From IMG/VR virus record IMGVR_UViG_2910596823_000004: a DNA stretch of 64,000 nucleotides, one strand, 5' to 3'. Each line of letters starts with the position of its first letter. Positions within the stretch are counted from its first letter, which is position 1. The notes beneath the pieces were generated by a model. The model was not told the origin of the DNA. It did no database searches and saw only the letters and a list, made by a program, of their open reading frames with translations. Positions 2,466 to 22,557 of the stretch are shown here, piece after piece. Position numbers and translations under genes: made by a program. The stretch is from a virus (taxonomy: Duplodnaviria > Heunggongvirae > Uroviricota > Caudoviricetes).

Positions 2466-3107
2466 TTAGACGCTCCCATCACTTTCATCACCAGACGCGT
2501 CAGAATCGCCCTCAGCTTCGCTCAGTGCTTCCTCTTCGAGTGACTCAAGCAGATCGTCATCAATCAGATCCGGCTCATCATCTTCCTTACGCAGCTGCGC
2601 CACCTGGGAAGGCGTAAGTTCGCCAAATACCAGGTTCGGGATTTCGTCGTCCTCGTTCTCCACGCGATCCATACCGAGCGCTTTCGACGATATTTCGAAG
2701 CACTTAGCGAGTGTGCCGCTGGCACGCTGGAGACTCTTCAGGTCATCTTCGATGGCTGCCAGTGGCCTGCCGTCCTTCTTGGCTGTGGCCACCTCATGCA
2801 TCACCATACGACCGAGTGCGAACGCCCAATCGTCGTAACGAGTCCGGCGCTCTTCGATTTTCTCTGCACGCGCCTTCGCACGCAGCTCTGCGTCGGATTT
2901 GAGCGACTCGCGCACCATCTTCCCAACGGAGTCCGCGCCTTTCTCTAATCCACGCTTTTTGAAATGTCTGGAGAGCGTTTCACGACGAATGCCGTACTCT
3001 TCCTCCAGCTTGGAGAGTGTGTATTCGCCGGAAGTCCACTTCGCTTCGGCTTCTGCCCACTCAGCTGGTGTCAGGCGAGTTTTGCTCTCGTCTTTTTCTA
3101 CAGTCAT
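2466..3107 (-). CDS. Putative terminase small subunit / DNA-binding packaging protein
   Basis: 213 aa, immediately upstream of and coupled to TerL. It has an HTH-like N-terminus and a very acidic C-terminal tail. The assignment is by position only. Confidence 0.45.
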   Translation of the reverse strand: MTVEKDESKTRLTPAEWAEAEAKWTSGEYTLSKLEEEYGIRRETLSRHFKKRGLEKGADSVGKMVRESLKSDAELRAKARAEKIEERRTRYDDWAFALGRMVMHEVATAKKDGRPLAAIEDDLKSLQRASGTLAKCFEISSKALGMDRVENEDDEIPNLVFGELTPSQVAQLRKEDDEPDLIDDDLLESLEEEALSEAEGDSDASGDESDGSV

Positions 3108-3302
3108 AGATCCCTCTAAAACACTCAGAGCGCATCCTTGCGCTCCTAAACAACTTGTTTAATTCAGTGCCTAACCAATTTGTTTTCTGGGTGTTTAAAA
3201 CCGGGCTGGGAAGTATTCAGAACCTGCTTCCGTATATATTTAATAAGTCACTTAGTATTTATATATACGGAAGCAGGCTCTCAAACTGGCTCCCAGACCG
3301 AC

Positions 3303-3569
3303 TTACATCACCAGTAATTTGGCTCTGGCACGACCTAACGTGGTCAGTCCCAGCGTGCGACGGTGGTAGCCGGAATCACCGCGCTGGCGGCACATTCCTT
3401 TCTCCACCAGCCCCTTTTTCACCAGTGCGCGGATAGAGAACTGCATACTCTGTTTGGTCGTTTTGTACGGCAGCACTTCAAGCAGCTCGTCCAGATCGAG
3501 CAGATGCCCACGCTCATGGCCTAAATTGATGGTTTTGATGATGTCTTTTTGTTTGTCGGTCAACGTCAT
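3303..3569 (-). CDS. Hypothetical small protein (88 aa), possibly winged-helix
   Basis: ORF in the same operon direction. It is followed by an 80-bp hairpin element. Confidence 0.4.
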   Translation of the reverse strand: MTLTDKQKDIIKTINLGHERGHLLDLDELLEVLPYKTTKQSMQFSIRALVKKGLVEKGMCRQRGDSGYHRRTLGLTTLGRARAKLLVM

Positions 3570-3578
3570 GGCAAATCC

Positions 3579-4478
3579 TTATGCCGGTAATGCAATTTCA
3601 AGAGGTTTATTCAAAGGCTGTTTGTCGAATGCCAGCAGTGGCAGCGTGTCCGGCAGCTGACGACCAAAGTCCGGGTTTCGGTACACGCCATACAGCGGAG
3701 ACGTGAAGCTCAGGTTGTGAATGTCCTTGAGCAGCTTCACGATGCTGGCCTCGTCCACCAGGCTGTCGGCAATGTCCTGAATCGTCGTGCCACGATTACG
3801 CCCGGCTTTGGCCAGGGAACTGTTCTTGTGGTAGTCAGCGACCAGATCACGCAGCGCACGACGACGGCGAGACTCACTCATGGCGAACAGCTCTTTGACG
3901 ATCGCTTCGTTGTCGCCAGGGTCAGAACGGAAATGACGCTGGAAGACGCGCAACGCACTCTCATAGCTCTTCGGACGCTCCGGACGGATGAACTGGAACC
4001 CTGCTTTCATGGCGAACGGGTTGTATTTGCTCATCGACGACTGGATCTCGATGATTGGCCGGTCGTGCATCCTGCTAACCAGGTTAATCATTCGATAGGA
4101 GACGCCGACACCGCGGTACTGAGTGTCAACAACGGAACGGCTGATCACGGCAAAGTTGTTGTTCACGTACCGGCCCCAATACTGGTTGGCCACGGTGGTA
4201 TTGGTGGTTGGCTTCAGCTTAGGAAACATGCGATGGCGAGGCGCCAGCAGCAGTTTCGGGTAAGCCATAACCACGACGCCCACCAGCCGGTCGTCCAGTT
4301 CGCAGCGATAATACGTTGGCGCGAACGGCTTACCATCCGTCTTGTAGTGCAGCGACTTCAGCGCGTGCCAGTCTTCAACCGTGCCTTTGGTAACGGTCAT
4401 ACGCTCCAGAAAGTCCAGATGACGCGGGAACTCTTCCGGGCGGTAGCGTTTGATGATGATGCCTGTCATGTCGATCAC
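3579..4478 (-). CDS. Hypothetical protein (299 aa). The central segment VVDTQYRGVGVSYRMINLV looks like GNAT motif A.
   Basis: Long ORF, tightly packed with its neighbours. Confidence 0.45.
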   Translation of the reverse strand: MIDMTGIIIKRYRPEEFPRHLDFLERMTVTKGTVEDWHALKSLHYKTDGKPFAPTYYRCELDDRLVGVVVMAYPKLLLAPRHRMFPKLKPTTNTTVANQYWGRYVNNNFAVISRSVVDTQYRGVGVSYRMINLVSRMHDRPIIEIQSSMSKYNPFAMKAGFQFIRPERPKSYESALRVFQRHFRSDPGDNEAIVKELFAMSESRRRRALRDLVADYHKNSSLAKAGRNRGTTIQDIADSLVDEASIVKLLKDIHNLSFTSPLYGVYRNPDFGRQLPDTLPLLAFDKQPLNKPLEIALPA

Positions 4479-4729
4479 CTACGCTCGATATTGGCATTGA
4501 TGAAGTCCAGGCGAAGCGATTCCATCGCCCCAACCATGACGTATGGACGCCCACCGTTATGCCAGCAATCCAGCACACTGCCGTCGTTGTTGATCATCAG
4601 CAGTGCCAGGCTCTGGCTTTTGCCTTCTCTGGCGTACTGGAGTGCTTCTTCCAGCAGGCGGATGACTTCAACGTTGTTGTTGTCAGCCTCTTTCGATGGC
4701 TTCAGCTCTACGATCTTCAAATCAGGCAT
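4475..4729 (-). CDS. Hypothetical protein (84 aa)
   Basis: ORF overlapping its neighbours by 4 nt and 8 nt (operon coupling). Confidence 0.4.
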   Translation of the reverse strand: MPDLKIVELKPSKEADNNNVEVIRLLEEALQYAREGKSQSLALLMINNDGSVLDCWHNGGRPYVMVGAMESLRLDFINANIERR

Positions 4730-5360
4730 ATTCCACCTTCACGCGTTCTTTGTAGTGCTTGGTGATCTGCATATCCGGGCGCAGCGCGTTCTTCAGGTCT
4801 TCGTGGGTCGTCGCCACCATTACCGTCGCACCAACCTTACGGGCGGCACGCTGGAGGTTCGACGCCACAACCTGGGCGGTTACACGGTCGAGAACAGCGC
4901 CAAATTCGTCGGCAGCCCAGACTTTCGCGCCGGACTCGATCAGCTTGGCGATCTTGAGACGGTATTTCTGGCCGTCAGACATCTCGGATGGCTTACGCAC
5001 AAAGAGATAGGCGTCGTTCAATCCGGCCATAGACAGCAGCCCCAGCGCTTCGCTGGTGGTTTTGCCCAGCTGGTCAATGACGTTAACCTCATTGTCGAAG
5101 GCAAAGTCATCGATGGAGGCTACAGAAAGCCCTTCATCCTTCATCTGGCGTTGCAGCTCGCGCAGCACAACGGATTTACCGGAACCGGATTGGCCGGTGA
5201 TGTACACCACGTCGCCCTGCTTCACTTCCAGCTCCAGATTGTCGTAAAGCGTCCACTCTTTTTCGTCCAGACCAAGACCGAACGATTCGGCAATCTCCAG
5301 CGTGCGCGTGGTTTTGTTCACGCGGGTCTGAAACGATACGTTGATGGTGTATTTGCTCAT
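4722..5360 (-). CDS. Minimal ABC-type ATPase
   Basis: Walker A GQSGSGKS, ABC signature MSDGQKYRL, Walker B VWAADEF, H-loop TTHE. Its start overlaps the upstream ParB-like gene (ATGA). Confidence 0.6.
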   Translation of the reverse strand: MSKYTINVSFQTRVNKTTRTLEIAESFGLGLDEKEWTLYDNLELEVKQGDVVYITGQSGSGKSVVLRELQRQMKDEGLSVASIDDFAFDNEVNVIDQLGKTTSEALGLLSMAGLNDAYLFVRKPSEMSDGQKYRLKIAKLIESGAKVWAADEFGAVLDRVTAQVVASNLQRAARKVGATVMVATTHEDLKNALRPDMQITKHYKERVKVEYA

Positions 5361-6058
5361 GCGGCCAGCTCCCCAGAAGAAACTTTCTCCGCATACGCCA
5401 CGAAAGCGTCTACCCCGCTCTCTCCCGTGATTTCTTCCATGTGGGCAAGCAAATCCCCAACCACAATGGCAGAGCCAGCAGGGAGCGTTTTAAAACCCAA
5501 TACGTCGATGACGCGGACTTCTTCAGCGGCCACTTCGCGACTGATCTCGGTGTGCTCTTCTTTCTGGCGTTCCGTCTCTTCGCCCAGATCGAGCACCAGA
5601 GAGCCGGTTTCCATCTCTTCGGTCATGCTGCCGACAAGCACGTTCAGCTCGCGCTCTTCAAAACCGAAGACCTCGACGTCGCCCAGCACCAGGGATTCCA
5701 GTTCCTGCTGCAATTTGATGGCGTCGTAGTCAATACTGGCCAGGCGGTTGTCTTCCAGACGCTTCGCCTTCACTTCTTCTTCGCTCAGATCGTCGCGAAC
5801 GATGACCGGCACACGCTCCAGACCAGCCAGAAGTGCCGCCTCGCGACGACCGTGGCCAGTAATGATGACGTCGTGCTTGTCGACCGTGATCGGCTGGTCA
5901 AAACCGCGCTTTTTGATGGCGGCCGCCAGGTCGCGGATCTGCTGTTCGTCATGTTTTTTGGCGTTCATCTCATACGGGATAAGTTCTGCCGGGTTTCGAT
6001 AGACGATTTCAAAGTTTTTGGTCATTACATACGCTCCTTGTAGTAGTCGACCAGCCAC
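5357..6058 (-). CDS. ParB/Srx-like N-terminal domain protein
   Basis: ParB-NTD motifs (NPAELIPYEMNAK ... ITGHGRREAALLAG). The real start may be the internal ATG at 6025 (MTKNFEIV). Confidence 0.55.
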   Translation of the reverse strand: MAGRLLQGAYVMTKNFEIVYRNPAELIPYEMNAKKHDEQQIRDLAAAIKKRGFDQPITVDKHDVIITGHGRREAALLAGLERVPVIVRDDLSEEEVKAKRLEDNRLASIDYDAIKLQQELESLVLGDVEVFGFEERELNVLVGSMTEEMETGSLVLDLGEETERQKEEHTEISREVAAEEVRVIDVLGFKTLPAGSAIVVGDLLAHMEEITGESGVDAFVAYAEKVSSGELAA

Positions 6059-13134: not shown

Positions 13135-13446
13135 TCAGGCTGTCGCCAGGAGAGAGGCACGCTGGATTTCTTGCTGGGCTGCTTTGTTCGCCTCCAGTAG
13201 CGCCTGTTCCAGCTCTCCTTCCGGCCAGATAATCTGTTTTGCCATCCACCCTCTTCCACTCTGGCGACGCACACTCATGACGTAACGCGTGCGGGAACCA
13301 TTGTCGAATGAGACCAGCGTCTCTTTGAACAGGCGAATGGCAGTGCCGTTGGCGATGATATCGAGCAGGGTCAGCTGGCTCATTGCGGTTGGCTTTTCTT
13401 TACGTGGCTGGCCCGCACTCAGTTTGGTGATCATCGCGTTTTTCAT
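13135..13446 (-). CDS. Hypothetical protein (103 aa)
   Basis: ORF preceded by a class-B motif at 13458-13493. Confidence 0.45.
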   Translation of the reverse strand: MKNAMITKLSAGQPRKEKPTAMSQLTLLDIIANGTAIRLFKETLVSFDNGSRTRYVMSVRRQSGRGWMAKQIIWPEGELEQALLEANKAAQQEIQRASLLATA

Positions 13447-13586
13447 AATTCACTCCGTAAACAACTTGTTTTCTTGTTGGTGTAAATAATACCAGCGAGA
13501 AAACGGCTACAAAGCATAGCGTTACGGCGCTGCGCAGCCCCGGAGGTTGCAAACAGCAAAAAGCCACCGTGCTGGTGGCCTCACGC

Positions 13587-13803
13587 TTAATCTTCGTCGT
13601 CCGGGAACTCGATGTGTACCGCATCCACCAGCTCCCGCTGTTCATCTTCACTGAGCAGGTGCCAGATCTCCTTCCCTTTGGGTGATTCCCCTTCAGCTGG
13701 TACGAACGACCACAACTTGCGGTACAACTCCGGCCCCACTGCATCCAGGCATTCAGCCAGGGAATCCACGCTCCACACCTCAACCATCACAGGCATCTTA
13801 ATC
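13587..13803 (-). CDS. Hypothetical acidic protein (72 aa)
   Basis: ATG at 13801-13803 preceded by a GAGGG RBS (MIKMPVMVEVWSVDSL...). The longer track ORF, 13587..13997, overlaps the next gene. Confidence 0.4.
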
Positions 13804-13815
13804 ATCTCTTCACCC

Positions 13816-14031
13816 TCACTTCGTTTCTGACATCGTGCAGTTCCACGCGACGGACATTGGGTTGTCCTCGATATGGAAATCAAACGTCCCTTCTCTGTAT
13901 CCTTCAGAGATGAGCGTCGCCACGCGGCCAGCAACATCCAGGGAACGGATAACGTCATCGAGGGAGATCTCACACTCGGATGACGCTTCCTCGCCACAGA
14001 GGGTGATGCTGATATTCAGATGTTTGTACAT
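13816..14031 (-). CDS. Hypothetical protein (71 aa)
   Basis: ORF preceded by a class-B motif at 14047-14081. Confidence 0.4.
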   Translation of the reverse strand: MYKHLNISITLCGEEASSECEISLDDVIRSLDVAGRVATLISEGYREGTFDFHIEDNPMSVAWNCTMSETK

Positions 14032-14176
14032 GTGTTTCTCCTTTGTCTAAACACATTGTTTTCTTGTGTGTGTTATTATCGCAATAAGAAAACGGGGAAA
14101 AAGAATTCCTTAAAGGCTGATGTGCTTGTGCCGATTTATTGATATGTATGTATCTGGCTAACTCAGAGGGAATGTG

Positions 14177-14419
14177 ATGAGCACTAAAGACTACACAGAC
14201 GGGTACTTCAGCATCGACGCCGAGAGAGGCGAGTTGCTACATGGCGGCATCGCTGTCGGACGCGTCATTTTGGTTAACGGTCAGATTTACACAGAGCTGG
14301 ACGATACCAGTTCAAGCGCACCTGTCGTCTCCGGCCCCTTCGGGACAAGAGAAGAGGCGCTCGATGATTTGTGGGACAACAGAGACGATGCGAATCAGGG
14401 CAGTGAGATTTTCGAATAA
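14177..14419 (+). CDS. Hypothetical protein (80 aa)
   Basis: ORF transcribed divergently from the small-gene cluster. Confidence 0.4.
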   Translation: MSTKDYTDGYFSIDAERGELLHGGIAVGRVILVNGQIYTELDDTSSSAPVVSGPFGTREEALDDLWDNRDDANQGSEIFE

Positions 14420-14429
14420 ACGTCCTCGG

Positions 14430-15700
14430 CGATTTCACCACCAAAACCCGTAACCCTTTACACTAGATCTGGCTTCCCGACATGAGCGTGCGAAGCTGAT
14501 CTGGTCTCAACGCTCAACTGCGGGATTCACCAATTCCCGCACTCTTCAGGTGAATGAGGAAAAGGCATACTCCCGCAGCCGCCCCTCGCTCTGAACCGGG
14601 ATGTACCCGTTTCCCGACCGGCAGCCAGCCTTTTCTCGGTTCGTATAGCGGGATTCCCACCGTTTCCCTGAAAACCTCCAGCCTTTTCCCTACGGCGATG
14701 CCCCGTTCCTGAAAAGGGACATGGCCTTTTCCCTGGATGGCCCGAAGGTTGACCGAAGGGGTGGATAGGGACGTTACGGGGGATGAAAACTATGGCTTGA
14801 ATTTCTACGAAGAAAGTAGCGATACCCCTCTTCCCCTTCCCACTTATACCTCCAGTTAAATCTCTACGGATTTTCTCTCCTGTGGACGTGCAAACCTTCC
14901 CCCTGATAACACTCTATACGGCGAGTATTCCTTTGGGTGAAATGGGTGGTTTGTTCTCTCTACCGGCGTATGTGGTTTCGTTCTTTTTGAGGTGGTTCTT
15001 CTCTGTGTTTTCGTCTGGGGTGTTCTCGTCGTTTTGGGGAGTGTTCTTCTCCCTGTATGGAGTAATGGCAGGTGCGCTTTTCTCTTCGTTTACGTGAAAT
15101 TGTGGAAGTGTGGGTAATGGCAGTAGGGCGCTTTAGTTGTTCTCCGCATATGAAGTAATGGCGTTCCCTGCTATTCAGGGATTTGCGCTCTCTTTCGGGG
15201 TAATGGTGGGTAAAGGAGATTGCGACGGTTCCTGTTCTGGTCTGGGTTTGTCCGGGGTTTCGTTCTGGCTGTTCTTCTCCGTGTATTGGGTAATGGCATA
15301 TAGGGGTTTGCGTGCACGAGCTGCATTCACGGTTGCCTGGGGAGATTAGGTGGGTGCTCTGTAGCCTGGGGCAAAGAGGTGGGTCTTTTCGGTAGCCTGA
15401 CAGGAAGAGGTGGGTGTTTCCGGGATTGTGGGTAATGGCGTCTCTGGGTTTCCTGTGGGTGTGGTTAACTTGTTTTCTTGTGCCTGAAAACAACTTGTTT
15501 AGATGTCCAACATAACGCAACGGGAGCGCTTCTGAGCGTGTCTGCTTTTGGGTGGTATCACGAGTCGTTTTTGACGTTTTGGTCGCAGGGAGATGGATTC
15601 TGGTGCGCAGGAATTTGGGTATAAGAGATGGCGTGCGAAAACATCAATTTTTTAGACCAAATCAGGGGAAAGCGTTGACTTTTCGTTGACGTGTTATTTA
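14430..15700. repeat. Large non-coding repeat region, G+T-rich on the plus strand
   Basis: Six copies of GTAATGGC, roughly 44-50 bp apart or multiples of that. Further repeats of TAGCCTG..AAGAGGTGGGT and CCTTTTCCC/CCGTTTCCC. The only ORFs are compositional artefacts. Confidence 0.55.
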
Positions 15701-15853
15701 TTTGTTTTCTTATGGGGGTAATTGGCTTAAATGCCTTGTCACGCCTGGGTTGGGGTAGGTTGGAGAGGTGGGGAAAGTGGCGATCAACGGACTCTTATAG
15801 AAATCCTCAATTTGTGACCGCCAATGTCAACGGATTGATTAAGCTAGTTGTGC

Positions 15854-17044
15854 TCAAACATCTCCGTTCTTAATCCACTGCCTGATTTCCTCGTCTCGTG
15901 CGACTTCTTTCTCGTGTTGGGTAACATACAGGTCGGGTAAAAGAGGTGGAGCGAATTCTGGCTCTGTCGAACACCACTTTTCATATGCCTCACGCATAGA
16001 TTTTTCTACATCCCAATGTTCCAACTCTTGGTATTCAATCGGCCAGTTATCCTGCAATTTCTTCACAGCTTTAGCCACGTCGTACCGGAAGTAAGGGTTA
16101 AGACCAATGAAATTACCAGCCAGCATGTCATCAACCTCCTTCACTCTGGCAATCTTGGAAAACTTACCAATAGCAATGTTGAGATCCCAATCAGACACGA
16201 ATAACAGCAGTGCGGCAAATGCCAGAAACTTAGCCTCTCCATATGCTCTGTCGCTAACCGTTTTTGTCTTAAACTCAATGTAATTGCTCATCACAAACCC
16301 AGTAAGCTTGTAAGTCTTATTTATCTCATCTTCCAAAAGCGATGGGTCGAGAATTGCACGGCCACGATTATTATCTATGTGTTCTAAGATTGCCGAAATG
16401 TCTCTATGGGATACTGAAATTTTACGCAATTGCTGGAGAGTCTTGATGTGAACTCTTAGCACCTCTTTGTCAATTGCACGAGACCAAGAAAAACCAGGCA
16501 CAGTAGCCTGAATGGGTGAGAAAGGCATAATATCCGGGTTTGTCCATGCCAAATATGATTCACGTAACCCGCTAATATAGTCAAGCCAATCCAAATGACC
16601 CTTTTCCAGCCATATTTCAAATGTGGAGTCCTTACGCTTATTGAAGAACCATTCCCTCATCTGCCACATTTTTTCTTGCGTAAAAATCCCTTCCTGTATG
16701 CCGGCGCATACCAGTTTTCGTATTACCTGCGAATACTTTGTTCGATCTTTCGTGAATGTGACAAGGTGCTGCCTTACCTCAGATGTTAACCTATCTCCGT
16801 AGAAGTCACATGATGGATGGTGGCCTTGGCCAGCTTCACCAGTAAATCTGAAATGCGCCTTCTTGTGATAACCATCATTCCTAGAGGCTCTAACAAACGA
16901 GCCACCTCCGACTTTGCAAATTGGACAGATGATGTCTTCACGAGCGACAGCATGAACTGAGCTGTCATCTAAATTTTTAAGTGCCAAGTACTGCTCGGGG
17001 TCGACTTCCTTTTGTAACGATTTCGAAAAAGCTGTATCCGTCAT
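15854..17044 (-). CDS. Hypothetical protein (396 aa) with N-terminal Cys/His cluster (CPICK...HHPSC)
   Basis: Long ORF. GC looks lower than the backbone by eye. Similar ~30-bp motifs lie at 15693-15722 and 17128-17160. Confidence 0.55.
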   Translation of the reverse strand: MTDTAFSKSLQKEVDPEQYLALKNLDDSSVHAVAREDIICPICKVGGGSFVRASRNDGYHKKAHFRFTGEAGQGHHPSCDFYGDRLTSEVRQHLVTFTKDRTKYSQVIRKLVCAGIQEGIFTQEKMWQMREWFFNKRKDSTFEIWLEKGHLDWLDYISGLRESYLAWTNPDIMPFSPIQATVPGFSWSRAIDKEVLRVHIKTLQQLRKISVSHRDISAILEHIDNNRGRAILDPSLLEDEINKTYKLTGFVMSNYIEFKTKTVSDRAYGEAKFLAFAALLLFVSDWDLNIAIGKFSKIARVKEVDDMLAGNFIGLNPYFRYDVAKAVKKLQDNWPIEYQELEHWDVEKSMREAYEKWCSTEPEFAPPLLPDLYVTQHEKEVARDEEIRQWIKNGDV

Positions 17045-17185
17045 ATTGTCCTCTTAAATGTCTCGTTCCAGTAATCGGTTGACTAAGGGGGCCGATCAAC
17101 TACTTAGCCAAGATATTATAGCTCTTGTTATTTATTTGTTTTCTTATATGTGTAAACAAATAAACGCTACAATTTCGACAATAAC

Positions 17186-18151
17186 TCAATTCCTATTGTG
17201 TCCTACTGAACGAGAAAGCAGTATGCGTTTCCAGTGTGATTCTCGTCGGTTTATCTCGCAGGCGTCACTGTTAATGTCCATGATTTCCAGAATAGAGAAC
17301 GTGACATTCTTGAGCCTTTCCTCATCGCCGGTTCCAAACGCTTCAATCAGGCCAGCATTCCCGCCGTGACCCGTTTTAAAGTAGGTCTTCCATCTTCCCC
17401 ATATTCCGCCTTTGCCGTTTGCCTGGCCAACATACAACTTCTCGCCATCAACATCAGTCAGCAGGTAGATGCCTTTGACAATACTCAGTGCAGTTCTCCA
17501 CGACTTTAACTCCTGCCGAATGATGGTTCCGAGACTGGCTCTGTCCAGAACTACGTCTTTGTAGCCGGGAAACTCGCCAAATGATAGACAGGATGGCGCA
17601 ATCTCAACGACTCGCAGTTTTCCGGCAAGAGTTTCGCCGTTCAAAATAGATCTGCGAGGACGCTCCGCACTGACATACAAACGTCCACGATATTCATCCA
17701 GTTCAGGAACAGGTGTCAGTTGATAGAGATAGTAGTCTTCGTTCCGGCCAGGTACTGCATGTGATGCTGTCAGAGAACACCCAACGTTGAGATAGGTGCC
17801 AGCATAGAGAAATCGCGCCTTATCTTCAGTCTGAATAAGAGAGACAACGTAAGTACGATTGAAGCTTTTCAGCTTCTGCAGGCATTGCCAGTCGTCGAAC
17901 GTCTCTTTCACGAACTCCTGTATCGGGTTTTCTTTATATTCGTTGGTGCTGGCTAAATGAATTTTGCTGTTATTTGGGGTCAGCTGCGGGTATAGCGACT
18001 GAAGGTACTGGAATAGTTCCATGCAGAAAATGTCCCTTATGAGATCGGCTCTGATATCTGGTATCTCACATGGAGAGCCGATCTGTCCACGACAAAAAAA
18101 AAGGCTTACCAGTCCCAGCCAGGTAATCCGTCCACCAGCTCGGCGTCGCAA
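17186..18151 (-). CDS. Protein with C-terminal GIY-YIG nuclease domain
   Basis: C-terminus reads KGIYLLTDVDGEKLYVGQANGKGGIWGRWKTY...NRRESHWKRIL (GIY...YVG plus conserved R and E). The N-terminal ~200 aa are unassigned. The true start may be the ATG at 18022 (MELFQYL). Confidence 0.55.
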   Translation of the reverse strand: MRRRAGGRITWLGLVSLFFCRGQIGSPCEIPDIRADLIRDIFCMELFQYLQSLYPQLTPNNSKIHLASTNEYKENPIQEFVKETFDDWQCLQKLKSFNRTYVVSLIQTEDKARFLYAGTYLNVGCSLTASHAVPGRNEDYYLYQLTPVPELDEYRGRLYVSAERPRRSILNGETLAGKLRVVEIAPSCLSFGEFPGYKDVVLDRASLGTIIRQELKSWRTALSIVKGIYLLTDVDGEKLYVGQANGKGGIWGRWKTYFKTGHGGNAGLIEAFGTGDEERLKNVTFSILEIMDINSDACEINRRESHWKRILLSRSVGHNRN

Positions 18152-18426
18152 TCGAAGTGAACCGCGTCAAAGCCGGCATCCACTATGGTCTGTATGTTAG
18201 AGATCGTCTCTTCGGAAATGCCATACTCACGCAGCTCTTCTTTCCAGTCATTCCCTCGCATTCCAGCACGAACAATCCAGCCGTACTGTGTACCGTGTAC
18301 CCAATTCAACCCGCGATCAGAAAGTGGGTCGAAGCAGGCAATGGGTAGCCGTTCTGAATCCGCTGCCGTTACGTGGGCGGTGCTGATCACCGCCGTCTTA
18401 TACGATTCGGTGATTTTCAGCATCAT
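18106..18426 (-). CDS. Hypothetical protein (106 aa)
   Basis: ORF. Its stop is followed by a T9 run and an imperfect hairpin. Confidence 0.45.
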   Translation of the reverse strand: MMLKITESYKTAVISTAHVTAADSERLPIACFDPLSDRGLNWVHGTQYGWIVRAGMRGNDWKEELREYGISEETISNIQTIVDAGFDAVHFDCDAELVDGLPGWDW

Positions 18427-18677
18427 GCCTTCTCCTTTGGAAACAGAATGTCGGCCGTGTCAGAAATGACATCCCAATTCACGCCGACGCTGGCGTCATG
18501 GCACTCTTTGATTTTTCGCAAAACCTGAACGCACTGTTCGTCAGTCAGGTCTGGTCGCACTTCACCTACATCTTCCTTGTGCCACATCACCATCAGCAGC
18601 GGCTCGTCTTCTGGGTAGTTCTCCAGCTTTTCGATGATGTCTTTTGCGGTTCCGAGCATGATTAACCCCTTAAACAA
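18423..18677 (-). CDS. Hypothetical protein (84 aa)
   Basis: ORF preceded by a class-B motif at 18671-18703. Confidence 0.45.
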   Translation of the reverse strand: MFKGLIMLGTAKDIIEKLENYPEDEPLLMVMWHKEDVGEVRPDLTDEQCVQVLRKIKECHDASVGVNWDVISDTADILFPKEKA

Positions 18678-18864
18678 TTTGTCTTCTTGTTGGTGTTATT
18701 ATCTCAAATAACAAAAGGCAGAAAACAAGATGTTTAAGGGATGATTAGGTGAGTTTGAAGTCGTCTATGTCATCAACAAACTCCATATACCTGGCTTCGA
18801 CACTCGACAATCTGATCAGATACGCAAGCCCGTAACTAAGTGAAGTGGGTTGCTCCAGCACAAA

Positions 18865-20853: not shown

Positions 20854-22557
20854 TCATTTTACACGCTTGAAAACGTATACGCTGACAGTGATTCCGGTGT
20901 CTTCAAACTCGTCAGTAAACGACTTCCCTTTGGCATAAACGTAATTATCCAGCGACATCCAGTTCAGAACTGGCGCATCACCCGGCAGTACAGCCACCAG
21001 TCGCCCGCCGACTTTAAGATGCTCCAGCGCGGCCAGCGTATGCTCTCTGTGACGGCCAAGAGAGTAGGGCGGGTTCATGACGATTTTGTCGAACTGATAG
21101 CCTGCGTTGTCCTCAGACCACTTCATGAAGTCACAGCAGACCGTATTTGTGTACCCCTTGCCAAGCAGGATATCAGCGAAGAGAGGTGCGACTTCTATGC
21201 AGGTAACGTCTTCCGGATTGGCGTCGATGCAGGCCAACAGATCTCCGCGCCCGGCTTCAGGCTCCAGCAGCTTCTCACCTAGCTTCAGCTCGATGGCTCT
21301 GGCAACGTACTCCGCTATCAAACGTGGGGTAGGGTAGAACTGGTGTGATTTTGTATCCGGTATTAAGCCGGTGGCCACAATCGTATTGAGCGTATGGCCG
21401 ATCTCATACGGGAACTGCCAGTGCTTTTTCTCCTGCACGCCGCCAATGAAGTTCAGTGTGCGCTCAAGCTCTTCCACCTGTGACTTCTGTAGGTTGGAAT
21501 CAGAGAAGTACCAGACGCCTTTGTCTTTGCTGAATCGCCCGTCGCGCAGCGCGGTACGAACCGGCTCGGAGATCGTCTTCTGGATTAACCCGAACTCTTT
21601 TGGTGCCCGTGTTTTGGGTGCAGTACGGCATGGCGCCGGGATTGCTGCAGGCATACTGTAAGCCAGCACCTCATTCAGCTTCCAGGCCACGTCAGGATGT
21701 ATTTCAAAGTGAACGTTGCCGTTCTTGAACATCTTCACGCGCATCAGGTTTCCGTCGACATTCATCCAGTCACCGGTCTGGCAGTCGTTTGCCCGGTACG
21801 CAGCTGATAGCATCTCAGTTGTGCGGTTGATGGTGATGAACTCTTTGTGTGCGAAGAAATGAAGCATGACGCGCAGGTCGTCGATGTAGTCCTCTTTCCG
21901 GTAGTTCACGCTGACGCTGTCCCGCCAGAACTCGGAAATGCAGTTGGCGATGATCAGACGCTCGCTAAAGCCGTTCGTCTTATTGGTCTTGTGGGCAGGA
22001 CTCAGCGCTTTAAACAAGCCATACACGCGCTCAGAGAGATATTTGTGCCTGTCATTCAGCAGATTGAGCATCGTGGGGATGACCGTTTCTGCTTTGAACT
22101 CCGGCACACCAACGAACTCCTTAACCTTCATCTGGTAGCCGGTTCTGTCAGTCCTGATGGTCTCCTGCTTGCCCTCGATGAACTGCTCCCGCCACTCGTC
22201 GCGGCGGGAAGCTGGCATGATCAGCAGAACGTTTGTCATATCCGTGACCTTCTTCCAGTACTCGGCCCAGATATTCTGTTTCACCCATTCAAGGTCGACC
22301 TTATCCAGCCAGGCTCTGTTAAAGCGTGTGCGCTCGTCATCCGGCCGGTGGTTGAGTCGCAGCAGGCGGTTAATCATGTTGTGGCGTTCGTCGCCATAAA
22401 CGAAGTCGTGAACCTGATGCATGAATGCGATCTCTTTCTCGCACTCGGCCACAATTTCGTGGATGACGTTCATTTCCTGCCGGTAGTCGATATCAGTGTT
22501 TGGGGTGATAGCGTCAATGATGGAAAGGGCTGTATTCATGATTGCACCATTAAACAA
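20854..22557 (-). CDS. DNA N6-adenine methyltransferase with a long N-terminal extension
   Basis: C-terminal class-I SAM MTase with NPPY (FDKIVMNPPYS). The real start is probably the ATG at 22539 (MNTALSIID), since the track start lies inside the upstream class-B motif. Confidence 0.6.
   Translation of the reverse strand: MFNGAIMNTALSIIDAITPNTDIDYRQEMNVIHEIVAECEKEIAFMHQVHDFVYGDERHNMINRLLRLNHRPDDERTRFNRAWLDKVDLEWVKQNIWAEYWKKVTDMTNVLLIMPASRRDEWREQFIEGKQETIRTDRTGYQMKVKEFVGVPEFKAETVIPTMLNLLNDRHKYLSERVYGLFKALSPAHKTNKTNGFSERLIIANCISEFWRDSVSVNYRKEDYIDDLRVMLHFFAHKEFITINRTTEMLSAAYRANDCQTGDWMNVDGNLMRVKMFKNGNVHFEIHPDVAWKLNEVLAYSMPAAIPAPCRTAPKTRAPKEFGLIQKTISEPVRTALRDGRFSKDKGVWYFSDSNLQKSQVEELERTLNFIGGVQEKKHWQFPYEIGHTLNTIVATGLIPDTKSHQFYPTPRLIAEYVARAIELKLGEKLLEPEAGRGDLLACIDANPEDVTCIEVAPLFADILLGKGYTNTVCCDFMKWSEDNAGYQFDKIVMNPPYSLGRHREHTLAALEHLKVGGRLVAVLPGDAPVLNWMSLDNYVYAKGKSFTDEFEDTGITVSVYVFKRVK

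Follow-up and report, generated by a model that had tools for sequence, protein, structure and literature searches.

A Uzume-family GIY-YIG gene as probable cargo of an SSU5-like phage-plasmid, next to an apparently independent backbone gene

The window that we analysed is a 64,000-nucleotide stretch of viral DNA, and the locus of interest comprises three genes on its minus strand. The first of these, g106 (18106-18426), is a backbone gene that forms the left border of a variable slot. It encodes a 106-aa protein with a DUF5983 C-terminal domain (Pfam PF19419, E = 1.5e-22; phrog_5003), and it is kept in SSU5, in pHCM2, and in the relatives L004 and L067-L069. The second gene, uzuA (17186-18022), has an ATG start and encodes a 278-aa protein with an N-terminal domain of ~175 aa (a candidate PUA-like reader) and a C-terminal GIY-YIG domain (residues ~183-276). 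Immediately upstream of its ribosome-binding site, in the 5' UTR, is an inverted repeat (18042-18084, minus strand) with perfect 11-bp arms (AGATCGGCTCT and AGAGCCGATCT) and a 21-nt loop. We will call the third gene, which encodes a 396-aa protein (15854-17044), gene B.

The initial annotation had described two open reading frames on the minus strand, and both are where it placed them. But the extent that it gave for the first gene (17186-18151) is an artefact of the ORF caller: the 321-aa frame from a TTG at 18151 overlaps g106. The UzuA homologs are all about 270-280 aa long and begin with M-x-L-F, and the deposited annotation of CP074286, a plasmid that is 99.5% identical, gives uzuA as 837 bp. 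Given these lengths and starts, we place uzuA at 17186-18022, with 278 codons for amino acids. It follows the annotation in having a C-terminal GIY-YIG domain (Pfam GIY-YIG, E = 1e-5) preceded by a part that is not GIY-YIG, although that part is about 175 aa rather than the ~200 aa proposed.

UzuA matches the PADLOC profile for UzuA (PDLC03973) over nearly its full length (profile positions 27-278 of 278; E = 6.9e-58, 194 bits), and it also matches PDLC03974 (E = 1.1e-36). The catalytic residues Y186, Y197, R210, E261, and N276 are intact; they are invariant in the 29 homologs that we aligned, and they align with Y6, Y17, R27, E75, and N90 of I-TevI. Judging from the profile matches and the active site, the GIY-YIG protein is a member of the anti-phage defence family Uzume. 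This bears out the suggestion that the protein is linked to anti-phage systems, but not the suggestion that it could be new, since it matches an existing profile and is 100% identical to proteins that were already deposited.

Uzume appears in the literature as a defence system of one gene, with a GIY-YIG domain (bioRxiv 10.1101/2024.10.26.620412). It has been attributed to Millman et al. 2022, with its mechanism given as unknown (PMC12926258). The main text of the preprint by Millman et al., where we looked for an experimentally validated homolog, does not mention Uzume by name, and we found no phage-resistance data for this ortholog in the searchable literature. In Bacillus, Uzume is reported to be often on plasmids (PMC11811056). 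The gene in the window resembles the described system in its length (equal to the 278-position profile), in its C-terminal GIY-YIG domain, in being a lone gene, and in belonging to a family that is often plasmid-borne. We see no structural difference; what sets this copy apart is its place in the cargo slot of a phage-plasmid and its lineage-specific 5' and 3' hairpins. A standard run of PADLOC or DefenseFinder would label the locus as Uzume, so we advise against treating it as a new two-gene system. This correction is the main practical value of our analysis.

GIY-YIG domains are also found in homing endonucleases. In I-TevI and the Seg enzymes, an N-terminal catalytic domain is joined by a linker to a C-terminal DNA-binding domain. 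UzuA has the same catalytic fold and the same catalytic residues as these enzymes, so we considered whether uzuA might be a selfish, free-standing homing gene that inserted between g106 and the gene that follows, and that spreads among SSU5-like genomes by cutting alleles that lack it. However, UzuA has its domains in the opposite order to the Tev and Seg enzymes, with GIY-YIG at residues 183-276 of 278, and we found no NUMOD or helix-turn-helix DNA-binding tail. The gene lies in neither an intron nor a lytic phage, and its product matches a curated model of a defence system. The family is chiefly chromosomal or plasmid-borne (Pseudomonas, Xanthomonas, Bordetella, Pantoea, and actinobacteria); only 3 of 50,697 phage records contain a homolog, and these are two Klebsiella phage-plasmids and a fragment. 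Also, uzuA has diverged in step with the backbones that carry it (100, 84, 83, and 77% identity), as expected from long residence and not from a recent sweep. We consider homing to be very unlikely. The initial annotation had noted that homing endonucleases usually have GIY-YIG at the N-terminus, and its reading that the protein is not one of them is supported.

What might UzuA do? The AlphaFold2 model of UzuA has a pLDDT of 88, and Foldseek independently ranked YTH domains directly after I-TevI. The N-terminal domain is predicted to form a beta-barrel with consistent matches to ASCH, EVE, YTH, SRA, and the N-domain of McrB, but these matches are low-scoring and lie below the usual confidence levels. 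The Pfam models for ASCH, EVE, YTH, and SRA do not match any of 29 members of the UzuA family, even at E ≤ 5. Tentatively, the predicted fold resembles the PUA-like readers of modified bases (ASCH/EVE/YTH). This resemblance suggests a type IV restriction mechanism. The ~175-aa domain would be a PUA-like beta-barrel of the ASCH/EVE/YTH/SRA kind that recognizes a modified base in the nucleic acid of an incoming phage and places the C-terminal GIY-YIG domain for cutting. [quoted passage not shown] Modification readers are typically shuffled among different nucleases. When we searched with a profile of the N-terminal domain alone, the 120 listed matches (of 298) were solely UzuA-type proteins, with no fusions to other effectors; so there is no sign of reader-like shuffling.

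The known enzymes with the most similar logic are PD-T4-3/CMoRE (PDB 9U75), a GIY-YIG type IV restriction enzyme that is specific for 5hmC and glucosyl-5hmC, and a set of fusions between PUA-like readers and nucleases. Examples of the latter are VcaM4I (EVE-HNH), MspJI and AbaSI (both with SRA), and the N-domain of McrB. [quoted passage not shown] UzuA has the opposite domain order, and it has GIYLLTD...KLYVG instead of the family-defining GIYxY. The sequences are unrelated: we found no match of UzuA to the PADLOC models for PD-T4-3 at E ≤ 1 and no match to the sequence of 9U75 in PDB. Like the reader fusions, UzuA appears to join a predicted N-terminal beta-barrel to a nuclease, with the low-scoring matches described above, but it does not belong to any of those families at the sequence level. 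Also, its nuclease is GIY-YIG instead of HNH or PD-(D/E)xK, and among the matches that we found, only CMoRE shares this feature. By analogy to CMoRE and from the structural model, we infer that UzuA may act as a modified-base-dependent nuclease. The mechanism of Uzume is unpublished; the system may be a type IV restriction enzyme that combines a PUA-like reader with GIY-YIG, and this gives a testable hypothesis for how it works.

Since RNA is a frequent ligand of ASCH and YTH domains, it could be the target of UzuA. UzuA could also be an abortive-infection toxin. In that case, the N-terminal domain would sense a phage protein or an RNA cue, and the GIY-YIG domain would degrade host and phage nucleic acids indiscriminately. 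The published descriptions of Uzume leave room for this, the PUA-like assignment is weak, and the closest matches of the N-terminal domain (ASCH and YTH) are mainly RNA binders. Furthermore, the 5' UTR of uzuA is structured and might hold the expression of a toxic protein low. The predicted fold of its hairpin has a free energy of -24.7 kcal/mol (z = -2.4), and the inverted repeat is kept, with small changes, upstream of uzuA in the relatives L004 and L068. On the other hand, no antitoxin or immunity partner is conserved beside uzuA, and CMoRE, the best-characterized analog, is a direct-acting enzyme rather than an abortive-infection system (PMC12923530). We think that a toxin of this kind is unlikely, but it deserves some weight; we prefer modification-dependent cutting.

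The protein encoded by gene B, a member of phrog_12525, has CPxC...HHPxC in its N-terminal beta region, and the rest is all-helical. The Cys/His cluster noted in the initial annotation holds up well: C40, C43, H75, and C79 are invariant in 32 homologs. Gene B is the positional ortholog of SSU5_107 (57% amino acid identity) and of a pHCM2 gene (95.5% amino acid identity). The family comprises about 184 sequence clusters and is without a described function; it has no match in Pfam, NCBIfam, PADLOC, or PDB, and the search by structure returned no match either. A full-length gene B is present in 257 plasmids in PLSDB. In SSU5-like phage-plasmids, alleles of gene B are strongly diverged (57% amino acid identity) within flanks that are 95% identical. 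Lone homologs of gene B occupy sites that are typical of accessory or defence genes: on IncX1 plasmids, their neighbors are NACHT or Abi genes; in a Klebsiella lambdoid prophage, the homolog is in the moron region (adjoining a SocA/Panacea gene and a pyocin module); and in Pectobacterium chromosomes, it is in a two-gene islet. Gene B thus seems to recur in accessory regions of several kinds of mobile elements, and the family is a widespread, structurally unassigned accessory protein of such elements. It may even represent a new kind of protein that acts alone in immunity or counter-immunity, which we propose quite tentatively and consider improbable.

Are uzuA and gene B partners? The initial annotation viewed them as a two-gene module of a nuclease and its partner. 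Under this proposal, they would form an obligate defence system, with gene B as a zinc-finger sensor or regulator and GIY-YIG as the effector. In its favor, the two genes are neighbors on one strand, they occur together in 30 PLSDB plasmids and one Kluyvera contig, both are below their immediate neighbors in GC content, and gene B has no assigned function that would exclude such a role. Nevertheless, a presence/absence comparison across SSU5-like genomes and other relatives showed that each gene is found without the other. Gene B occurs without uzuA in SSU5, in pHCM2 (where a 10-bp junction joins it to the upstream gene), and in plasmids from E. fergusonii and Klebsiella. Conversely, uzuA occurs without gene B in elements from Enterobacter, Salmonella Tennessee, Klebsiella, and Buttiauxella, which include at least four other SSU5-like variants. 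No uzuA is near the homologs of gene B in the IncX1 plasmids, the lambdoid prophage, or the Pectobacterium chromosomes.

The counts point the same way. Among 62 loci with uzuA from species representatives, gene B is within 8 kb of uzuA in just one, which is another SSU5-like contig; outside of the window's lineage, no homolog of gene B is that close in any of 61 loci. When we clustered the neighbors of uzuA in these 62 loci and in plasmid loci, no gene family was shared outside of SSU5-like elements. In PLSDB, only 30 of the 257 plasmids with gene B have the uzuA-B junction, while 43 records have uzuA followed by a 172-aa gene, and 33 records (of the pHCM2 type alone) have g106 joined to gene B without uzuA. 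Also, 141 bp separate uzuA from gene B. This gap contains a hairpin and a TATAAT, which suggests that the two genes are expressed separately. The TATAAT (17115-17120, minus strand) lies 5 bp downstream of a sequence motif linked to uzuA, and gene B starts 70 bp further on. The hexamer reads as a possible -10 element for gene B; it lacks a good -35 hexamer, and our promoter scan did not report it. Given its distribution, the two-gene system is largely refuted, and we consider it extremely unlikely.

In most of the relatives that carry uzuA, a different gene follows it, and within the SSU5-like elements alone, three different genes do. We considered these as other potential partners: the 172-aa gene found behind uzuA in most relatives, a 148-aa secreted protein from Buttiauxella, SSU5_106, and a 242-aa gene on large Klebsiella plasmids. 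No two of these four are related, none is related to the Pectobacterium neighbor of gene B, and none of them matches Pfam or PADLOC, so we rejected them.

The comparison to pHCM2 (L065) shows how uzuA is placed. With blastn, 18423-18107 of the window aligns to 2174-2490 of pHCM2, and 17044-13563 aligns to 2501-5984 (95.7% identity), so just 10 bp separate the two blocks in pHCM2. Relative to pHCM2, the window has a clean insert of 1,062 bp (17045-18106, minus strand), which comprises the 5' UTR of uzuA, uzuA itself, and the 141-bp 3' spacer with a copy of the motif. More broadly, the locus region is 99.5% identical to the Salmonella plasmid pCFSAN006211, and its flanks are 86-95% identical to SSU5. 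The initial annotation had described a module of lower GC content. This is correct for gene B (43.7%) and for the spacer between the genes (34%), but uzuA, at 47.8%, is within one standard deviation of the window's mean (50.8%, with a standard deviation of 4.0 across 1-kb windows).

We propose that uzuA arrived as a self-contained cassette of ~1 kb, with the gene between a 5' hairpin and a 3' hairpin that includes the motif. The slot lies between g106 and a conserved non-coding block, and in the window's lineage, it holds two independent items, uzuA and gene B. The explanation that we favor, and consider quite probable, is that the window is an SSU5-like phage-plasmid; that uzuA is cargo in this variable slot and a copy of the already-described Uzume; and that gene B is an independent backbone gene and not its partner. 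This documents a defined cargo slot in SSU5-like phage-plasmids where exchange has involved Uzume as well as at least three other small genes. The slot is relevant to the carriage of defence genes by phage-plasmids of clinical Enterobacteriaceae.

The motif is an exact 22-bp direct repeat (ATAAGAAAACAAATAAATAACA, minus strand) at 15692-15713 and 17126-17147, for which 100 shuffles gave no matches. With identity relaxed to 90%, the repeat is 30 nt long (15692-15721 and 17126-17155). The flanking repeats of ~30 bp in the initial annotation are therefore real, but they are not diverged, as 22 bp are exact, and their coordinates were off by 1-5 bp. Even allowing for up to 3 mismatches, these are the only two copies in the window. 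They do bracket gene B, as had been proposed, but only the copy at 17126 is part of the uzuA cassette; the copy at 15692 is part of the conserved backbone. In the uzuA-linked copy (17126-17164, minus strand), the core of the motif supplies the right arm of a hairpin with perfect 11-bp arms (17131-17141 and 17154-17164), and the 3' spacer folds with z = -3.2. This copy is 38-40 bp after the stop codon of uzuA, with 0-2 mismatches, in all five of the SSU5-like variants that carry uzuA. The unit of uzuA and motif is common to variants with three different downstream genes. Downstream of gene B, the backbone copy (15692-15721, minus strand) closes a non-coding block that is strongly conserved (15714-15840). 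SSU5, pHCM2, L004, and L066-L070 all have this copy at the same position, and in the aligned relatives, the motif and the flanking GTTGAY/RTCAAC repeats are almost invariant.

The initial annotation had offered recombination at the repeats, or two promoters, as explanations. Homology to the uzuA-bearing relatives L068 and L004 stops at 17126 and 17122, that is, at the motif, so the repeat does mark the boundary of the cassette in these comparisons. Relative to pHCM2, however, the breakpoints are at gene boundaries and not at the motif, which counts against this explanation. As to promoters, a scan for the sigma-70 consensus found no excess over shuffled sequences and no site at the motif. We also rejected intrinsic terminators, as the hairpins are not followed by runs of T, and Rfam had no match in 13500-18600. 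Nor was the motif brought in with uzuA, because it is absent from all of the uzuA loci outside of SSU5-like elements. Since one copy is in the backbone while the other trails uzuA and coincides with breakpoints in homology, the motif is probably a cassette boundary or a regulatory site. We suggest that it is a backbone element, one copy of which moves with the uzuA cassette, and that it serves as a recombination boundary, as a binding site for a regulator, or as both. The core of the motif (AAGAAAACAANTNAA) occurs three times in the window, versus 0.19 times expected, and a degenerate third copy of the motif (15460-15496, minus strand; 70% identity over 15460-15489) has an 11-bp hairpin of its own, with arms at 15467-15477 and 15486-15496.

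The region is 99.5% identical to the Salmonella Senftenberg plasmid pCFSAN006211, and it matches 232 non-mobilizable ~110-kb plasmids from Enterobacter, Escherichia, Salmonella, and Citrobacter. The match to phage SSU5 is confined to the flanks. Together, these matches indicate that the window is an SSU5-like phage-plasmid.

ORF calling on the window gave two ORFs on the minus strand of this region. The GIY-YIG ORF, uzuA, was first called from a TTG at 18151, which corresponds to 321 amino acids. We rejected this start because the 5' extension overlaps the upstream backbone gene g106 (18106-18426) and because the homologs are shorter: all of them have 270-280 amino acids and an N-terminus of M-x-L-F. 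Also, the gene is annotated as 837 bp in CP074286, a plasmid that is 99.5% identical to the window. We therefore place uzuA at 17186-18022 (278 amino acids). The start in the initial annotation (18151) was too far upstream, and its length of ~200 amino acids for the N-terminal domain needed a correction. The other ORF, gene B, lies at 15854-17044 and encodes 396 amino acids. The GC content is 43.7% for gene B, 34% for the spacer between the two genes, and 47.8% for uzuA, versus a window mean of 50.8% (standard deviation 4.0), so the "lower GC" reported for the module is clear for gene B and the spacer only.

UzuA matches PADLOC's UzuA model PDLC03973 (E = 6.9e-58) across profile positions 27-278 of 278, and a second PADLOC UzuA model also matches it (E = 1e-36). 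Uzume is listed as a system of one gene, which has a GIY-YIG domain (bioRxiv 10.1101/2024.10.26.620412); it is credited to Millman et al. 2022 and is classed as having an unknown mechanism (PMC12926258). Judging from the sequence, the locus is an instance of this known system in the cargo slot of a phage-plasmid, which is why it is of low interest. The initial annotation's observations were largely correct apart from its start codon, domain length, and account of the repeat, which are now amended. Its interpretation was half right: the defense-type cargo (from the PADLOC match) and the boundary repeat hold, but the system is not new and is not a two-gene system. Two leads are left: a tentative model of Uzume as a reader fused to a nuclease, and the unassigned family of gene B.

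In Pfam, UzuA has a GIY-YIG domain alone (residues 183-266). Residues Y186, Y197, R210, E261, and N276 align to the catalytic Y6, Y17, R27, E75, and N90 of I-TevI (profile alignment, E = 2e-5) and are invariant across 29 diverse UzuA homologs. Because of this alignment and invariance, the nuclease is probably active. The family, found on both chromosomes and plasmids, is widespread: it extends over Enterobacterales, Pseudomonas, Xanthomonas, Stenotrophomonas, Bordetella, and actinobacteria, in which the similarity covers the C-terminal two-thirds. Homologs are present in only 3 of 50,697 phage records (two Klebsiella phage-plasmids and one fragment). We therefore rejected the idea that UzuA is a homing endonuclease. 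Nor do these records show orthologs uniformly present in strictly lytic relatives with a known replication or homing function, which the initial annotation had named as evidence against its own interpretation.

A second lineage of uzuA, 57% identical, is common on 125-330 kb Klebsiella IncFIB/IncHI1B plasmids and accounts for the majority of 207 Klebsiella matches. In one example (L071:5001-5834), a mer operon lies a few kb to one side, and genes for a PP2C phosphatase, an InaA-kinase, and TerY-C lie a few kb to the other.

The AF2 model of UzuA is confident (pLDDT 88). When it was compared to known structures with Foldseek, YTH domains ranked next after I-TevI, but at E values of only 0.04-0.6. 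CMoRE (PD-T4-3) offers a precedent, having been shown to act as a type IV enzyme with GIY-YIG in a single polypeptide, with 5hmC and glucosyl-5hmC as the bases that it reads (PMC12923530). UzuA itself is not CMoRE: its domain order is reversed, its motif is GIYLL instead of GIYxY, and the sequences do not match. Given the YTH ranking and the CMoRE precedent, the most economical mechanism would be that the N-terminal domain is a modified-base reader fused to the GIY-YIG nuclease, a proposal that we rate at somewhat below an even chance. ASCH and YTH domains are often RNA binders, which is a caveat for this model. A Pfam search found no sequence-level PUA signal in the UzuA family. Among the matches listed in a search with the N-terminal domain, it is joined to GIY-YIG only.

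Are uzuA and gene B partners? Gene B belongs to phrog_12525, and its positional ortholog in SSU5 is SSU5_107 (57% amino acid identity); SSU5 has a 63-amino-acid gene at the position taken by uzuA. In S. Typhi pHCM2, gene B (95.5% identical) is only 10 bp from g106 and uzuA is absent. Plasmids from E. fergusonii and Klebsiella also contain gene B without uzuA. Conversely, at least four variants have uzuA without gene B: uzuA is followed by an unrelated 172-173-amino-acid gene in Enterobacter pMTY10695 (uzuA 84% identical), Salmonella Tennessee pCFSAN076210 (uzuA 83%), and Klebsiella pKp46564-1 (uzuA 77%), and by a gene for a 148-amino-acid secreted protein in Buttiauxella. Across 62 species-representative uzuA loci, gene B is near uzuA in only one other SSU5-like contig, and no neighbor family is shared outside the SSU5-like plasmid lineage. 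In PLSDB, junction searches found uzuA-B in 30 records, the tight pHCM2-type g106-B junction in 33, and uzuA next to the 172-amino-acid gene in 43; gene B is full-length in 257 plasmids. Since each gene is found without the other and different genes follow uzuA in relatives, we rejected gene B as a partner of uzuA. The mutual absence and the junction counts argue that the two genes are independent occupants of one variable slot.

Most SSU5-like plasmids with uzuA encode this conserved 172-173-amino-acid hypothetical protein after it, in place of gene B (L068:3921-4439, L069:3910-4425, and L070:3922-4440 in relatives' loci). They comprise an Enterobacter type with 43 PLSDB records and, in addition, types from Klebsiella and Salmonella Tennessee. 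The protein has no match in Pfam or PADLOC.

Gene B has no match in Pfam, NCBIfam, PADLOC, or PDB sequences. An exhaustive search placed its family in 184 clusters at 50% identity, nearly all of ~375 amino acids. No DefenseFinder matches were reported in pHCM2-like elements (bioRxiv 10.1101/2025.09.12.675607), so gene B is outside current defense catalogs. It is far more diverged from its SSU5 allele (64.7% nucleotide identity) than the adjoining flank is (94.8%). A homolog from a Klebsiella lambdoid prophage (L074:7001-8215; 51% identical) is in the early-right moron region, between O/P/ParB-HTH genes and a SocA_Panacea gene with a pyocin S/immunity pair. In the Pectobacterium chromosome (L077-L079:7001-8191; 80% identical), the homolog is one of two genes that form an islet flanked by ychF and an MFS transporter gene, with an adjoining Y1 transposase gene in one case. 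Ralstonia, Rhizobium, and Yersinia plasmids carry distant homologs in accessory regions with poor annotation, and those from IncX1 plasmids are next to either a NACHT or an Abi gene. These data are compatible with gene B being an accessory immunity or counter-immunity protein, and equally with a backbone regulatory protein.

The IncX1 homologs (28% identity; L072:5001-6128 and L073:5001-6128) have a fixed position, with dqlB (a type I toxin gene) on one side and the hns-hha-topB block on the other. Their neighbor varies: in pHP2 it encodes a protein with a NACHT domain, and in Salmonella Dublin plasmids one of the Abi family.

The slot is marked by a 22-bp direct repeat, ATAAGAAAACAAATAAATAACA, with two exact copies on the minus strand (15692-15713 and 17126-17147); 100 shuffles gave no match. 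It lengthens to 30 nt at 90% identity, so the ~30-bp repeat in the initial annotation is real, but the copies are exact over 22 bp and not diverged. A repeat search found a degenerate third copy at 15460-15489. The window and pHCM2 have a single clean difference of 1062 bp (17045-18106), flanked by g106 (86% identity) and by gene B and downstream sequence (95.7%). In comparisons with the other variants that carry uzuA, homology extends from g106 across uzuA, ends at the motif's last base (17126 for L068 and 17122 for L004), and restarts directly past the stop codon of gene B (15839 and 15831). This places the repeat at a cassette boundary.

The uzuA-linked copy (0-2 mismatches) lies 38-40 bp past the uzuA stop in every uzuA-bearing SSU5-like variant. 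Whether or not they carry uzuA, all SSU5-like elements have the backbone copy ~140 bp past the last variable gene, and the motif is absent from all uzuA loci outside this lineage. In our reading, the motif belongs to the backbone, where a protein perhaps binds it, and it would also provide a patch of homology where cassettes end. The backbone copy ends a non-coding block that shows almost no variation, even between SSU5-like elements whose identity in other parts is only 72-78%. This block (15714-15840, directly downstream of gene B) contains GTTGAC, GGCGGTCAC, TTTCTATAAGA, and CCGTTGATCGCC; past the motif, the region carries ATCAACGAAAAGTCAACG, and GTTGAY/RTCAAC occurs four times in total. 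The block is probably a protein-binding region.

There are perfect 11-bp hairpins on the 3' side of uzuA (arms 17131-17141 and 17154-17164, with the right arm from the uzuA-linked motif copy) and in its 5' UTR (arms 18042-18052 and 18074-18084). Both UTRs fold more stably than shuffled controls (z = -3.2 and -2.4). A consensus TATAAT follows the motif at 17115-17120; no convincing -35 hexamer accompanies it, and promoter and terminator scans were at background.

None of the related plasmid records annotates a CDS in the ~1.4 kb at 14450-15853, and Rfam gave no match there. This stretch has strong strand asymmetry (+ strand GC skew up to +0.37 and AT skew down to -0.45) and several families of 20-37-nt direct repeats (14972/15020; 15042/15135/15270; 15111/15287/15429; 15329/15358/15389). 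These repeats look like iterons and might point to an origin of replication, a centromere, or a long non-coding RNA.

Short stretches of 30-75 nt (13444-13488, 14048-14101, and 18657-18745), which differ from the 22-bp motif, recur at several places between genes in the window, SSU5, pHCM2, and pCFSAN006211, at 78-94% identity. These are probably the promoter-type repeats that the initial annotation alluded to. Finally, at a distance of 2.4 kb upstream from the slot that holds uzuA is a 567-amino-acid ORF (20854-22557, minus strand), for which relatives' annotations give a protein with a DUF4942 domain; from reading its translation, the C-terminal part looks like a methyltransferase.
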